Origin: Candidatus Aminicenantes bacterium
Lineage (GTDB): Bacteria; Acidobacteriota; Aminicenantia; Aminicenantales; Saccharicenantaceae
DNA: 35,497 nt
Reading direction: 5' to 3'
Assembly (NCBI GenBank): GCA_041304225.1
Contig: JBFYNT010000309.1
Location: 1-35,497 of the forward strand
Made by a program: the position numbers and the translations under genes. A model generated the notes under the pieces. It was not told the DNA's origin. It ran no database searches and worked only from the letters and a program-made list of their open reading frames with translations. This document shows positions 23,818-27,008 of the stretch, piece by piece (position 1 is the stretch's first letter; each line of letters starts with the position of its first letter).

Positions 23818-23940
23818 GGGCGACCTCCCTGATGACGGTAAGCCATCGTTCGCCCCAATCGTAGGCCACCGCCCGCCAGTGTGTCAATCCGGAAAAAGGG
23901 TATCCCCTAGACCGGCGATTTGGTCTATAGTAATACCGCC

Positions 23941-25299
23941 ATGGATCTCGCCCGGGGGAGGAGCGGTTTCGCCGGCGACGCCGAGGCCATCTGGCGCGCG
24001 GCCGTTGCGGCCGTCGACCCCTGGTCCCTCATCCGGGAGAGCGTCGGGCGCGAAGGCGACGTCGTCCGGATCAAGGGCCGCGAATTCGACCTGTCCGCCC
24101 GGGACCGCGTCTTCCTCGTCTCTTTCGGCAAGGCCGCCGCGGCCATGGGCGAAGCCCTGGCCGCCGTCCTCGACGACCGGCTGACCTCGGGCCTCGTGGT
24201 CGTGCCCGGGCCGGTCGGGCACGAAGGGTCCCGGCTCGAATATATCGAAGCCTCCCATCCCGTCCCGGACTCGCGGAGCGTCGAGGCCGCCCGGCGGGTG
24301 CTCGAGATCGCGACCGCGGCCGGCGAGCGCGACCTCCTTTTCGTCTGCATCTCCGGCGGCGGGTCGTCGCTCCTGACGCTCCCGGCCGAGGGGATCGCGC
24401 TCGACAAGAAGCGCCGCCTGGCCGACGACCTGATGCGCGCCGGGGCGACCATCCAGGAGCTCAACGCCGTCCGCAAGCATCTCTCGGCCATCAAGGGCGG
24501 GCGGCTGGCGCGGGCGGCCTTCCCGGCCGAAGTGGTCACCCTGGCCATCTCCGACGTCGTCGGGGACGACCTCGGCACCATCGCCTCGGGCCCGACGCAC
24601 TGGGACGAGTCGACTTTCGCCGAAGCGCGGGCCATCCTCGAACGCTACGGCGTCTGGGACTCGGCCTCGGCCCTGGTCCGGGCCCGCATCGAGGAAGGAG
24701 AGCGCGGACTCGTCGAGGAGACCCTCAAGGAGGGCGACCCCGTCTTCAACCGCGTCCGCTCGTTCGTCGTGGGCGGCAACATGACCGCCCTCCGGGCCGC
24801 CAAGCACGAGGCCGAGAAGCGCGGCTTCGAGCCCATCTTCCTGTCGTCGGGCGACGGCGGAGAGGCCCGCAAGGCGGCCGCGAGCTACGCCGCCTTCCTG
24901 GCCGAGCTGGCCTGCTCCGCCTCGTCGCTGCCCCGCCCCCTCTGCCTCCTCGCCGGGGGCGAGCTCACGGTCACGGTCACCGGGCGGGGGAGAGGAGGCC
25001 GCAACACGGAGTTCGTGCTGGCCTCGCTCGTCGAGATGGAGCGGGCCGAGGTCGGCGGGCTCGACTGGCTCATCCTCAGCCTGGGCACGGACGGCATCGA
25101 CGGCCCGACCGACGCCGCCGGGGCCTGGGCCGACCGCTCGACCGCCGGACGGGCGCGGGCCCTCGGGCTCGATCCGGCCGCTTATCTCGAAGACAACGAT
25201 TCCTACGGCTTCTTCAAACAGACGGGGAACCTCATCGTCACCGGGCCGACCGGAACCAACGTGATGGACCTCCGGATCTTCCTGCTTCGCGCCGCCTGA
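23941..25299 (+). CDS. Glycerate 2-kinase / hydroxypyruvate reductase-like protein (DUF4147 + MOFRL)
   Basis: Matching segments are FGKAAAAMGEAL, ISGGGSSLL, LNAVRKHLSAIKGGRLA, LLAGGELTVTV.GRGRGGRNTEF, GTDGIDGPTDAAGA and TGPTGTNVMD. Confidence 0.85.
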   Translation: MDLARGRSGFAGDAEAIWRAAVAAVDPWSLIRESVGREGDVVRIKGREFDLSARDRVFLVSFGKAAAAMGEALAAVLDDRLTSGLVVVPGPVGHEGSRLEYIEASHPVPDSRSVEAARRVLEIATAAGERDLLFVCISGGGSSLLTLPAEGIALDKKRRLADDLMRAGATIQELNAVRKHLSAIKGGRLARAAFPAEVVTLAISDVVGDDLGTIASGPTHWDESTFAEARAILERYGVWDSASALVRARIEEGERGLVEETLKEGDPVFNRVRSFVVGGNMTALRAAKHEAEKRGFEPIFLSSGDGGEARKAAASYAAFLAELACSASSLPRPLCLLAGGELTVTVTGRGRGGRNTEFVLASLVEMERAEVGGLDWLILSLGTDGIDGPTDAAGAWADRSTAGRARALGLDPAAYLEDNDSYGFFKQTGNLIVTGPTGTNVMDLRIFLLRAA

Positions 25300-25310
25300 C
25301 CGGCGCGACC

Positions 25311-26141
25311 CTATTTGTAGACGCCGGCCGCGTCCCACTTCCCGATCGTCTCGAGGACGAGCCCGGCGACGCGGTCGTTGACCCTGCGGAAATAGTCCTT
25401 GGCCTGGGCGGCGTCGAAGGTCGGATAACCCTGGCCCTTCTCGTAGAGGAGGATCGTCGAGGAGACCGGGACCATATAGTAAGCCCCGGCCGGGGCGTTG
25501 GGCTCGGCCATCTCGGGCTTGTAGCGCTCGGGGTGGATGTAGGCGGGGAGGAACGCCTGCACGTAGGCCGTCTCGTTGTTGCCCGCGTGCCCGCCGTTCT
25601 GCTTGAACACGGCCTTGGTGATGTCGTCGGCCAGCGTCCACCAGTTGACGACCAGGACCCGGACGCGGCGGGCGTTGGCGACCTTGGTCGCGGCGGCGTT
25701 GAGGACGGCCGTATTGCCGCCGTGCCCGTTGAGGACGATGAGGTTCTTAAAGCCTTGCGCGGCCAGGTTGTCGAGGACCGATTCGGCGAACGGCGCGTAG
25801 GCCTCGGCCGGGATGGAGACGGCCCCCGGATAGGCCTTCATCGCCTCGGTCATCCCGTAGTTCAGGGTCGGCGCGATCAGGGCATCCACCCGGCCGGCGA
25901 TGTCGCGGGCCATGGCCTCGGGCGCGAGGCTGTCGGTGCCGTTGGGGATGACGCCGTGGGGCTCGAGCGAGCCGAAGGGGACGAGGACCGTCCGGACGCG
26001 CGCCGGCACCAGCTCGCCGAATTCCTGCCAGCAGAGCAGGGCCATCTCGCGCGTCGTCGGGGCTTTCGTCTGGGCCGCGGCCGGGGCGGCGGCCGCCGCC
26101 GCCAGGATCGCCGCCGTCAGGACCGTCAGGGCTTTTCTCAT
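25311..26141 (-). CDS. Creatininase (creatinine amidohydrolase) family protein with signal peptide
   Basis: Signal peptide MRKALTVLTAAILAAAAAAPAAAQ. Family motifs are VPFGSLEPHG and LNGHGGN. GGAGG lies upstream of the ATG. Confidence 0.85.
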   Translation of the reverse strand: MRKALTVLTAAILAAAAAAPAAAQTKAPTTREMALLCWQEFGELVPARVRTVLVPFGSLEPHGVIPNGTDSLAPEAMARDIAGRVDALIAPTLNYGMTEAMKAYPGAVSIPAEAYAPFAESVLDNLAAQGFKNLIVLNGHGGNTAVLNAAATKVANARRVRVLVVNWWTLADDITKAVFKQNGGHAGNNETAYVQAFLPAYIHPERYKPEMAEPNAPAGAYYMVPVSSTILLYEKGQGYPTFDAAQAKDYFRRVNDRVAGLVLETIGKWDAAGVYK

Positions 26142-26211
26142 GTCGTTCGCCTCCTCGCTCCCCCCATCTTACGACATCCGGCGCCCGTTTTAAAAAATCC
26201 GCCGGCGCCTC

Positions 26212-26239
26212 TTGATTTTTTCCGCGGGGGGACTATAAT
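26212..26239 (+). promoter_or_regulatory. Near-consensus sigma70 promoter P1 (tandem unit 1)
   Basis: TTGATT (26212-26217), a 16-nt spacer, then TATAAT (26234-26239). The context GGACTATAATG is identical to P2. Confidence 0.5.
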
Positions 26240-26245
26240 GACCCC

Positions 26246-26340
26246 AAGTTTTCTTGGGCCGGCTGGAGAAAACTTCAACCCCATGAAATACATCATTTTC
26301 CCCCTTATCTGCTGTTAAAAAAACAGCCGGCATTTTCCCC
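26246..26340 (+). ncRNA. Candidate small structured RNA, unit 1 (family unknown)
   Basis: It lies downstream of P1. A 9-bp hairpin pairs AAGTTTTCT (26246-54) with AGAAAACTT (26267-75). The 12-nt loop contains GCCGGCTG, which is complementary to CAGCCGGC (26324-31). That is followed by ATTTTCCCC. There is no conserved ORF. Confidence 0.3.
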
Positions 26341-26363
26341 GCGCGACGAAAAAAAATTACTCC

Positions 26364-26391
26364 TTGATTTTCCGGCCGGCCGGACTATAAT
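26364..26391 (+). promoter_or_regulatory. Near-consensus sigma70 promoter P2 (tandem unit 2)
   Basis: TTGATT (26364-26369), a 16-nt spacer, then TATAAT (26386-26391), exactly 152 bp downstream of P1. Confidence 0.5.
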
Positions 26392-26397
26392 GGCCTC

Positions 26398-26481
26398 GGC
26401 TCTCTTTCGCCGGCTGGAGAGGGCTCCCTCAATTATCCAATCATCACCCCCCTTTTGCTGACCTCAGCCGGCACTTTCCCC
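26398..26481 (+). ncRNA. Candidate small structured RNA, unit 2 (paralog of unit 1)
   Basis: A hairpin pairs CTCTC (26400-04) with GAGAG (26417-21). The 12-nt loop contains GCCGGCTG. The downstream complement is CAGCCGGC (26465-72), followed by ACTTTCCCCCC. Shared blocks with unit 1 are GCCGGCTGGAGA, ATCAT, CCCCCTT, TGCTG and CAGCCGGCA. Confidence 0.3.
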
Positions 26482-26505
26482 CCGCTTCTCCCGGCGGCGC
26501 GATTG

Positions 26506-26514
26506 TGCTATCAT
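26506..26514 (+). promoter_or_regulatory. Extended -10 promoter for the 154-aa orphan gene
   Basis: TGcTATCAT (26506-26514). GGAG (26534-37) lies 6 nt before the ATG at 26544. Confidence 0.4.
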
Positions 26515-26543
26515 ACGGGCAATTCCCGAGCGCGGAGTTCCCG

Positions 26544-27008
26544 ATGGGCAAGATCGACTGGAAGAAAGAGCTGGCCAACCACTTCGAGAACGTGCGGGTC
26601 ATCGAGCTCTGCCAGGCCGAGACCGTCGGGCAGTTCGACCAGTTCTGCGAGTTCATCGCCGAGCCCGCCTTCGAGACCCTGGCCGACGAGCTGGGGAGCT
26701 TCCGCATCAAGTGCGAGCAGCAGAAGACCAAGGGCAAGAGCATCCGCTTCGTCATCTGCTTCCCGGGCCTCAAGGACGAACAGTTCCATTACCGGATCTC
26801 ACTGCCCAAGAACGCGGTCGAGCTGCGGCTGAAGCTGCAGGTCAAGGCCCGGCGCACGCCCAAGGCCGAATATCAAACGGTGGACGAGGATTTCATGCCG
26901 GGGCTGTTCCCGTTCAAGGTGCTTAGGATGGACAAGGACGAGGTCATCGCCGACGTCGTCAAGCACTACACGGGTTTTTGCTACACCGCGCTGACGTCGC
27001 CGGACTGA
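26544..27008 (+). CDS. Hypothetical cytoplasmic protein, 154 aa, no family recognised
   Basis: Third-position G/C bias looks like that of the neighbouring genes, and the SD is good. No signal peptide and no recognisable motifs (MGKIDWKKELANHFENVRVIELCQAETVGQFDQF...). Confidence 0.6.
   Translation: MGKIDWKKELANHFENVRVIELCQAETVGQFDQFCEFIAEPAFETLADELGSFRIKCEQQKTKGKSIRFVICFPGLKDEQFHYRISLPKNAVELRLKLQVKARRTPKAEYQTVDEDFMPGLFPFKVLRMDKDEVIADVVKHYTGFCYTALTSPD

Follow-up and report, generated by a model that had tools for sequence, protein, structure and literature searches.

A 402 base pair (bp) non-coding gap at positions 26142-26543 of a contig from a Candidatus Aminicenantes bacterium (JBFYNT010000309.1; the whole analysed stretch of 35,497 nucleotides (nt) is called the window here) contains two tandem units which, judging from their sequence, are the type A (unit 1) and type B (unit 2) genes of an undescribed Aminicenantes small-RNA family absent from Rfam. 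We consider it highly probable that both units are real, transcribed and structured non-coding RNA genes. With regard to their role, we moderately favor a pair of sibling regulatory small RNAs, in which a pseudoknot scaffold would display a C/U-rich single strand.

The gap is flanked by a Creatininase-family gene (25311-26141, minus strand) and by a 154-amino-acid (aa) open reading frame (ORF) (26544-27008, plus strand), and has a GC content of 0.52 against 0.68-0.73 in the flanking regions. The initial annotation of this DNA had described an AT-richer intergenic island with two paralogous units repeated at a period of 152 bp, and this description holds, as an alignment of the two units, offset by 152 bp, shows 76% column identity. 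The shared sequence blocks that it had listed were likewise recovered by alignment and by a repeat search of both units, in the form of CTTGATTTT...GGACTATAATG, TCTT..GCCGGCTGGAGA, ATCAT..CCCCCTT and CAGCCGGCA(T/C)TTTCCCC. The two predicted RNAs, whose helices S1 and S2 are described below, are as follows:

26246..26336, plus strand: unit 1 RNA (type A), some 90 nt long, beginning at the predicted start and ending with the U run that follows the S2 3' strand
26398..26480, plus strand: unit 2 RNA (type B), with a conserved core at 26398-26474

The 3' end of the unit 1 RNA was placed by the ATTTT that follows CAGCCGGC, and that of the unit 2 RNA, which is not precisely placed, should lie upstream of the next promoter at 26504.

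A conserved RNA family in the Aminicenantes

A scan of GTDB species genomes with the pattern GCCGGCTGGAGA-N12-40-ATCAT-N12-40-CAGCCGGC returned 100 stretches, comprising about 95 Aminicenantes bins and 5 chance hits in other phyla. Searches with nhmmer over all loci recovered 12 further copies that fail the exact pattern, the intact ones among which keep both octamers (the loop octamer and its downstream complement; see below). Taken together, about 120 distinct copies are present in about 95 genome bins, all belonging to Candidatus Aminicenantes (NCBI phylum Aminicenantota), with some of the bins labelled Acidobacteriota. This group is the candidate division OP8, which is abundant in anaerobic digesters and sediments and to our knowledge has no cultured member. 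The copies fall into three subtypes, namely A (unit 1), B (unit 2) and C, which comes from AT-rich lineages and whose linker, the stretch that follows S1, contains an additional small hairpin. Each genome has just one or two copies at syntenic positions, and no copy was found in the viral contigs of IMG/VR.

The initial annotation did not recognize the fold as that of any known family, and a cmscan of the whole window against Rfam 15 (4227 models) agrees with it in yielding nothing at the gathering score. A permissive cmscan of 26100-26600 returned only the M23 RNA (RF03006; 18.8 bits, E = 0.5, cut-off 41.2 bits) at 26373-26422, which we rejected as a chance match spanning the unit 2 promoter and half of S1. 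When a type C relative and another 12 related loci were searched against Rfam, no match was obtained for the RNA, the only hits being tRNAs elsewhere in those loci, and the RsaE covariance model found no match in searches with E up to 10 and permissive filters. Full-text searches of the literature for Aminicenantes riboswitches or small RNAs, and for the literal motifs, yielded nothing relevant.

The conservation of these units is pronounced: unit 2 is on average about 93% identical in genomes where the 154-aa protein encoded next to it is only 35-50% identical. Several features indicate that this conservation operates on the RNA rather than on a peptide, as the initial annotation had proposed. 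Within each subtype the anchor-to-anchor distances, taken modulo 3, cover all three classes; neither a start codon nor a reading frame is shared across the family, with indels breaking the frames; and the ATGs that occur in the units lie inside TATAATG, where they overlap the -10 hexamer, and vary between copies. Peptide coding was rejected on these grounds. We also noted decayed or rearranged copies in five related loci (L012 6177-6236; L059 2394-2479; L061 5736-5810, minus strand; L068 1833-1872; and L079 6491-6538; L numbers denote individual loci), in which the damage takes the form of an internal deletion, a replaced 5' half, or the survival of 3' halves only. To the extent that sequence can tell, these copies show turnover of paralogues.

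Helix S1 is supported by covariation

The first helix, S1, is formed in the two units by the following arms:

26246..26255, plus strand: unit 1 S1 5' arm AAGUUUUCUU, pairing with 26266-26275 (-7.9 kcal/mol)
26266..26275, plus strand: unit 1 S1 3' arm GAGAAAACUU, pairing with 26246-26255
26398..26406, plus strand: unit 2 S1 5' arm GGCUCUCUU, pairing with 26417-26425 (-10.3 kcal/mol)
26417..26425, plus strand: unit 2 S1 3' arm GAGAGGGCU, pairing with 26398-26406

Pairs in S1 were counted from the loop anchor, which is possible because no indels surround the loop in any of 110 distinct cores, and also formally on a 62-sequence MAFFT alignment. In this alignment S1 comprises nine pairs (columns 3-11 with columns 22-30) and 97.1% of the cells are paired, whereas registers slid by 1-3 columns allow just 40-56% of the cells to pair. 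Changes on both sides were detected at five of the pairs, for example C-G to U-A at two positions and G-C to A-U at another, and the covariation score of the helix was reached by none of 500 shuffles. The first helix of the proposed pseudoknot is thus supported by covariation. Such changes also occur inside subtypes (for example, GAUUCUU/AGAAUC in L035 and GGCUUUC/GAAAGCC in L056), and the signal is therefore more than a reflection of the split between types A and B. Furthermore, U·G and G·U pairs are frequent in S1, and as these exist only in the plus-strand RNA, it is this RNA that constitutes the functional strand.

These results bear out the initial annotation in its proposal of hairpins at the same place in both units, with compensatory differences between them, and in the 9-bp hairpin of unit 1, whose arms were recovered as the exact 9-bp inverted repeat AAGTTTTCT/AGAAAACTT. 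Two of its details need correction. The 5-bp CTCTC/GAGAG stem that it drew for unit 2 is shifted by two from the register supported by covariation (a slide of -2, in which 41% of the cells are paired) and was rejected in favor of GGCUCUCUU/GAGAGGGCU, which gives a helix of 9 bp including three G·U pairs. Similarly, the hairpin loop, which had been given as 12 nt, is 10 nt long if the conserved U·G pair that closes it is included. A GGAG-NNNN-CUYC mini-hairpin was also considered and rejected as incompatible with the supported S1.

The loop octamer and the proposed pseudoknot helix S2

The loop of the S1 hairpin always consists of two variable nt followed by the octamer GCCGGCUG, after which the next base already belongs to S1. 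Its complement, CAGCCGGC, lies 34-68 nt downstream of the loop octamer across the family. These elements would form the second helix, S2:

26258..26265, plus strand: unit 1 loop octamer GCCGGCUG, S2 5' strand, invariant in 110/110 distinct cores; the first loop, L1, is 26256-26257
26324..26331, plus strand: unit 1 CAGCCGGC, S2 3' strand, invariant and followed by AUUUU at 26332-26336
26409..26416, plus strand: unit 2 loop octamer GCCGGCUG, S2 5' strand, invariant; L1 is 26407-26408
26465..26472, plus strand: unit 2 CAGCCGGC, S2 3' strand, invariant, overlapping a local hairpin at 26457-26468

Exact 8-nt complements (GCCGGCTG/CAGCCGGC) were found in unit 1 and in unit 2, confirming the perfect complementarity between the loop and the downstream strand that the initial annotation had pointed out. 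The 8-bp duplex has an energy of -15.9 kcal/mol, compared with -4.3 to -6.6 kcal/mol for the competing local hairpin, and is the helix picked by RNAalifold. All eight pairs are invariant in 62/62 aligned sequences, and covariation is consequently silent with regard to S2. A scan of metagenomes for S2 variants, in which a change at U20 was required, returned three copies. One of these, in L113, combines GCCGGCCG with CGGCCGGC, such that U20-A89 has become C20-G89; this is a compensated change in a copy with a good -10 element. The decayed paralogue in L061 has the same double change, with GUAGGCCG facing CGGCCGGC and seven of the eight S2 pairs kept. Set against the helix are the other two copies, namely L114, which keeps CAGCCGGC and thereby an uncompensated C·A mismatch, and has a weaker promoter, and L112, which has two S2 mismatches along with a weak promoter and other damage. 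The evidence for S2 thus amounts to invariance and one or two compensated variants. The variation is confined to the edge of the GCCGGC palindrome within the octamer, or to positions outside it, and this confinement may explain the frozen core of S2.

The geometry, in which the 2-nt first loop crosses an 8-bp helix, the second loop is absent and the third is long, is plausibly acceptable for an H-type pseudoknot by analogy with the pseudoknot of T2 gene 32, in which 1 nt spans 7 bp. As to the H-type pseudoknot proposed by the initial annotation, the complementarity and the compensated change in L113 speak for it, the invariant strands offer no covariation, and the changes in L114 and L112 are uncompensated. 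The pairing of GCCGGCUG with CAGCCGGC is accordingly best viewed as likely, and not as demonstrated.

A G-poor linker, a local hairpin and other pairings

Between S1 and the GCUG block that opens the local hairpin lies a linker of about 29-35 nt:

26276..26310, plus strand: unit 1 G-poor, C/U/A-rich linker, with AUCAU at 26292-26296 and CCCCC at 26300-26304
26426..26456, plus strand: unit 2 G-free linker CCCUCAAUUAUCCAAUCAUCACCCCCCUUUU, near-invariant save for a short A/U spacer
26311..26327, plus strand: unit 1 local hairpin GCUGUU-AAAAA-AACAGC (-6.6 kcal/mol), which competes with S2 for CAGC
26457..26468, plus strand: unit 2 local hairpin GCUG-ACCU-CAGC, which overlaps the S2 3' strand

The share of G in the linker is 0.5% (type B), 2.8% (type A) or 6.4% (type C), compared with 33% in the window. 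With so little G, the linker is unable to form pairs within itself. Its motifs are AUCAU, a C run with U after it and, in many copies, CCCACCU.

The competing local GCTG/CAGC hairpin described in the initial annotation is indeed present in both units, and we considered it as a required element but rejected this on several grounds. It shrinks to 2-3 bp in L016, L026, L053, L056, L068 and L083; its G76 has been lost six times without compensation; and in type B its apparent A-U pair would close a 2-nt loop. In each of the six losses the partner, C88, is unchanged, which fits a role for S2 in holding C88. Another candidate pairing arises from the purine-rich S1 3' arm, which can alternatively pair with the C/U tract in 92% of the cells. 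We found it to be unsupported, as slid registers reach 75-78%, the covariation is confined to the A-versus-B split, and columns 27/68 are mismatched (A·C) in 21 of the 62 sequences. A pyrimidine-motif triple helix was rejected because the strand polarity does not fit.

Promoters and predicted transcript ends

A consensus scan revealed exactly two promoter sites, one ahead of each unit and none elsewhere nearby, against 0.2 expected from shuffles:

26212..26239, plus strand: unit 1 promoter, with -35 TTGATT at 26212-26217, a 16-nt spacer and -10 TATAAT at 26234-26239
26364..26391, plus strand: unit 2 promoter, with -35 TTGATT at 26364-26369 and -10 TATAAT at 26386-26391

Both are near-consensus promoters of the sigma-70 type with the form TTGATT-N16-TATAAT, and they are precisely the sites that had been proposed for the two units. 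Across the family, a perfect TATAAT is seen in 85 of 120 distinct copies and at least 5/6 bases of the -10 hexamer in 112/120, while TTG is present at -35 in 93/120, with a 16-nt spacer in most. The spacer sequences themselves are not conserved. The -10 element ends 6-8 nt ahead of the first paired base of S1 in 114/120 copies, and from this family-wide spacing it follows that the RNA should begin at the S1 5' arm, with predicted starts near A26246 in unit 1 and near G26398 in unit 2. A dedicated promoter placed for a start at the RNA, which is what a small-RNA gene generically shows, is thus encountered almost throughout the family.

A simple terminator scan of the gap in the window found no terminator. 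U runs come after CAGCCGGC(A) in many copies of type A. Tandem arrangements have U runs or hairpin-plus-U terminators downstream of type A (L021, L032, L012, L084 and L028), with clear hairpin-plus-U terminators in L084 and L028. A C-run/G-run hairpin was observed downstream of 20 of 58 type B copies.

Genomic context

The constant downstream neighbor of type B is the 154-aa orphan protein, which we term p154. The relevant features in the window are:

26544..27008, plus strand: p154
26504..26514, plus strand: extended -10 promoter of p154, TGTGCTATCAT, seen as TGTGnTAnnAT in L001, L002, L006 and L007

In about 55-60 loci, p154 is preceded by a co-oriented type B copy at a distance of 61-182 nt, and this arrangement persists where the protein is just 35-50% identical to that of the window. 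The extended -10 element, situated about 30 nt upstream of the ATG, is seen in many more loci by way of the recurring translation 'CYHT'/'LSYG'. With this promoter of its own between type B and p154, p154 is a separate transcription unit, and the gap of the window holds three successive promoters. We also noted a direct repeat, CGGGCAATTCCCGA / CGCGGAGTTCCCGA, at 26516-26544 in the short 5' untranslated region (UTR) of p154, the second copy of which holds a GGAG ribosome-binding site.

No sequence match to p154 was found in Pfam, NCBIfam or PDB. Its homologues number 135, and all the named ones come from Candidatus Aminicenantes or Acidobacteriota bins; contigs with diverged homologues carry the RNA units upstream. 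A FCEFIAEPAFE motif is nearly invariant in these proteins. The predicted model comprises a long helix, a five-strand sheet and a helix, with a pLDDT (predicted local distance difference test) of 89.6. A fold search of this model against PDB gave no significant match (best E-value 0.076), and RNA-binding folds (phage coat, PUR) were encountered only among the non-significant ones. In the AT-rich lineages represented by L008 and L010, p154 occurs without an upstream RNA. Within the 8-kb loci, p154 was never encountered close to a type C copy. The type C RNA faces a convergent gene in at least 7 of its 15 loci, as judged by ORF heuristics. Two type C loci have an 86-nt tRNA gene about 120-150 nt away from the RNA and divergent from it (L035 4115-4200 and L055 6058-6143).

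Type A is found either directly before type B, as in the window, or before a GT9 glycosyltransferase gene, confirmed as PF01075, that separates it from type B. The latter arrangement was seen in about 25 loci, with the end of type A 7-60 nt upstream of the start codon of GT9 (for example, +7 in L053, +11 in L102, +13 in L023 and L074, and +19 in L007). The ancestral order appears to have been MOFRL, type A, GT9, type B and p154; in the window, the MOFRL gene is at 23920-25299, the Creatininase gene has been inserted and GT9 is missing. In L002, the MOFRL gene has a gene for an IS200-like Y1 transposase (18-482) close upstream of it, which fits local rearrangements at this locus. The Creatininase-family gene of the window has short GGCCGC and 15-nt tandem repeats in its first codons (26073-26122, minus strand), which encode an alanine-rich, signal-peptide-like N-terminus.

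Functional considerations

On the reading that we favor, GCCGGCUG would pair with CAGCCGGC and stack on S1 as an H-type pseudoknot, and where a U run follows, S2 might double as a terminator stem. The knot would serve as a compact, nuclease-resistant scaffold that holds the linker permanently single-stranded (AAUCAUCACCCCCCUUUU in unit 2 and AUCAUUUUCCCCCUUAUCU in unit 1). The linker could then pair with purine-rich, Shine-Dalgarno-like sites in target mRNAs, or bind a single-strand-specific protein, with the two RNAs being sibling regulators that act in trans. In lineages that have type A immediately before the start of GT9, it would additionally serve as the cis-acting leader of this gene. 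Base pairing in trans as the actual mechanism is a more tentative proposition, which we hold to fall a little short of an even chance.

Several observations weigh against this reading. The single-sequence folding energies of both units are unremarkable (z = -0.1 to -0.2), and because they do not stand out the case for structure was built on relatives. The start sites and 3' ends of both RNAs are predictions. The near-invariance of the 77-nt type B core exceeds the conservation that is usual for base-pairing small RNAs, and no target was found; AAAAGGGGGG-like sites occur in the window at chance level. Lastly, the neighborhoods have features of cis action: type A before GT9 leaves no room for another promoter in about 25 loci, and is for this reason the 5' UTR of GT9 there, while the constancy of type B upstream of p154 is itself a sign of such a role.

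The foremost alternative is that the units are cis-acting 5' leaders (riboswitches, protein-binding operators or Rho/attenuation elements), with type A controlling GT9 and type B controlling p154. The pseudoknot helix beside the start codon or the U run would then be the switch, and the loss of GT9 in the window would have left type A stranded ahead of type B. The short distance of 7-27 nt between the end of type A and the GT9 start in many loci, and the co-oriented placement of type B before p154, speak for this model, and the combination of a covarying stem, invariant loops, variable spacers and the optional type C hairpin resembles riboswitch aptamers. Likewise, the C-rich, G-poor tract resembles a Rho loading site, and the pairing of the S1 3' arm with this tract would allow a two-state switch. 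However, that alternative helix is not kept where S1 varies, given the A·C mismatches and the single A-versus-B split described above. The conserved extended -10 of p154 intervenes between type B and its supposed target, type C copies are often convergent with or distant from the next gene, and in the tandem loci a terminator separates type A from the type B promoter. Moreover, no ligand or shared pathway connects the downstream genes. As the GT9 arrangement shows that the RNA can sit in a 5' UTR, the leader model, while unlikely, keeps a sizeable minority share of the probability.

The unusual conservation invites a different class of explanation. A clade-wide, near-invariant structured RNA could have a dedicated partner, either forming a particle with p154 or functioning as a sensor or decoy built on the pseudoknot, such as a mimic of the 16S rRNA 3' end with an anti-Shine-Dalgarno-like strand on display, an idea that we rate as unlikely. 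The GCCGGC loop would on this account be frozen by several simultaneous pairings, which we hold to be similarly unlikely. In its strict form, in which the RNA is part of a conserved ribonucleoprotein and covered over most of its length by a protein, possibly p154, or mimics the 16S 3' end, and does not pair with mRNAs at all, the explanation is doubtful. It would account for the tRNA-like conservation (about 93% identity, against 35-50% for the neighboring protein) and for the invariance of both S2 strands and of GGAGA, which goes beyond the need of simple pairing. The constant linkage of type B to a lineage-restricted orphan with a confident predicted structure also speaks in its favor. In addition, GCCGGCUGGA and AAUCAUCACCCCCCUUUU (26409-26456) resemble CUGCGGCUGGAUCACCUCCUUU at the 16S 3' end, a likeness that could be due to chance; no 16S 3' end was present in the fetched loci for comparison with the RNAs. 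Countering this are the lack of a significant fold match for p154, its occurrence without an upstream RNA in L008 and L010, and the type C copies, which are not near p154 in the 8-kb loci.

That there is no functional RNA, and that the units are instead duplicated promoters with protein-binding inverted repeats in the DNA, small peptide genes or a mobile repeat, is very improbable, because, even though the S2 strands are invariant DNA inverted repeats containing the GCCGGC palindrome and short ORFs can be read through the units, S1 is kept by way of G·U pairs that are meaningless in duplex DNA or on the other strand, the half-site spacing varies from 34 to 68 bp, indels break the reading frames and the ATG lies inside the -10 hexamer, and there are one or two syntenic copies per genome, with none in viral contigs.

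We hence return to the sibling small RNAs as the preferred reading. Irrespective of the mechanism, the family represents a well-defined RNA gene that occurs once or twice per genome, has a strong promoter of its own and is apparently strongly expressed. It combines a clear structural model with the conserved neighborhood of MOFRL, type A, GT9, type B and p154, and might be used to mark the lineage in metatranscriptomes and to approach post-transcriptional control in the Aminicenantes. Being conserved more strongly than the protein that flanks it, the RNA may also have a function that goes further than routine small-RNA regulation.

Comparison with known systems

Among known RNAs, RsaE/RoxS of the Firmicutes is similar in being a short, promoter-driven RNA conserved across a wide clade, with unpaired C-rich runs (CCCC then U) that could pair with G-rich Shine-Dalgarno regions. 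There is no match in sequence or structure and the host phylum differs; furthermore, the C-rich tract of the Aminicenantes RNAs is in the long G-free linker of the proposed pseudoknot rather than in hairpin loops. The CcsR or 'cuckoo' RNAs of Alphaproteobacteria, and sibling RNAs such as Qrr1-5 and OmrA/B, are comparable as tandem paralogues with pyrimidine-rich, anti-Shine-Dalgarno-like motifs, in which the copies share invariant blocks while their stems differ. What sets the Aminicenantes units apart is that each has its own promoter, that their motif is CCCCCCUUUU or CCCACCU rather than CCUCCUCCC, and that their architecture is that of a 5' hairpin with a long-range helix, with no Rfam match.

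A third comparison is with leaders that form H-type pseudoknots (SAM-II, preQ1-II and T2/T4 gene 32), with which type A before GT9 shares a loop that pairs with a strand beside the start codon, and the family a short first loop, a long third loop and strongly conserved single strands. The differences lie in the third loop, which is 45-57 nt long and G-free in the Aminicenantes RNAs, in the S2 strand, which is not a Shine-Dalgarno sequence, in the absence of Rfam matches and in the many copies that have no downstream gene to regulate; the knot itself is also only proposed. The 6-nt GC-only palindrome GCCGGC presented by the loop recalls the dimerisation initiation site of HIV-1, and loop-loop dimers, including those between types A and B, would be possible in principle. 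This resemblance is formal, as the Aminicenantes RNA has an intramolecular partner in CAGCCGGC. The novelty of these RNAs is genuine at the level of the family, while in kind they belong with bacterial small or leader RNAs.

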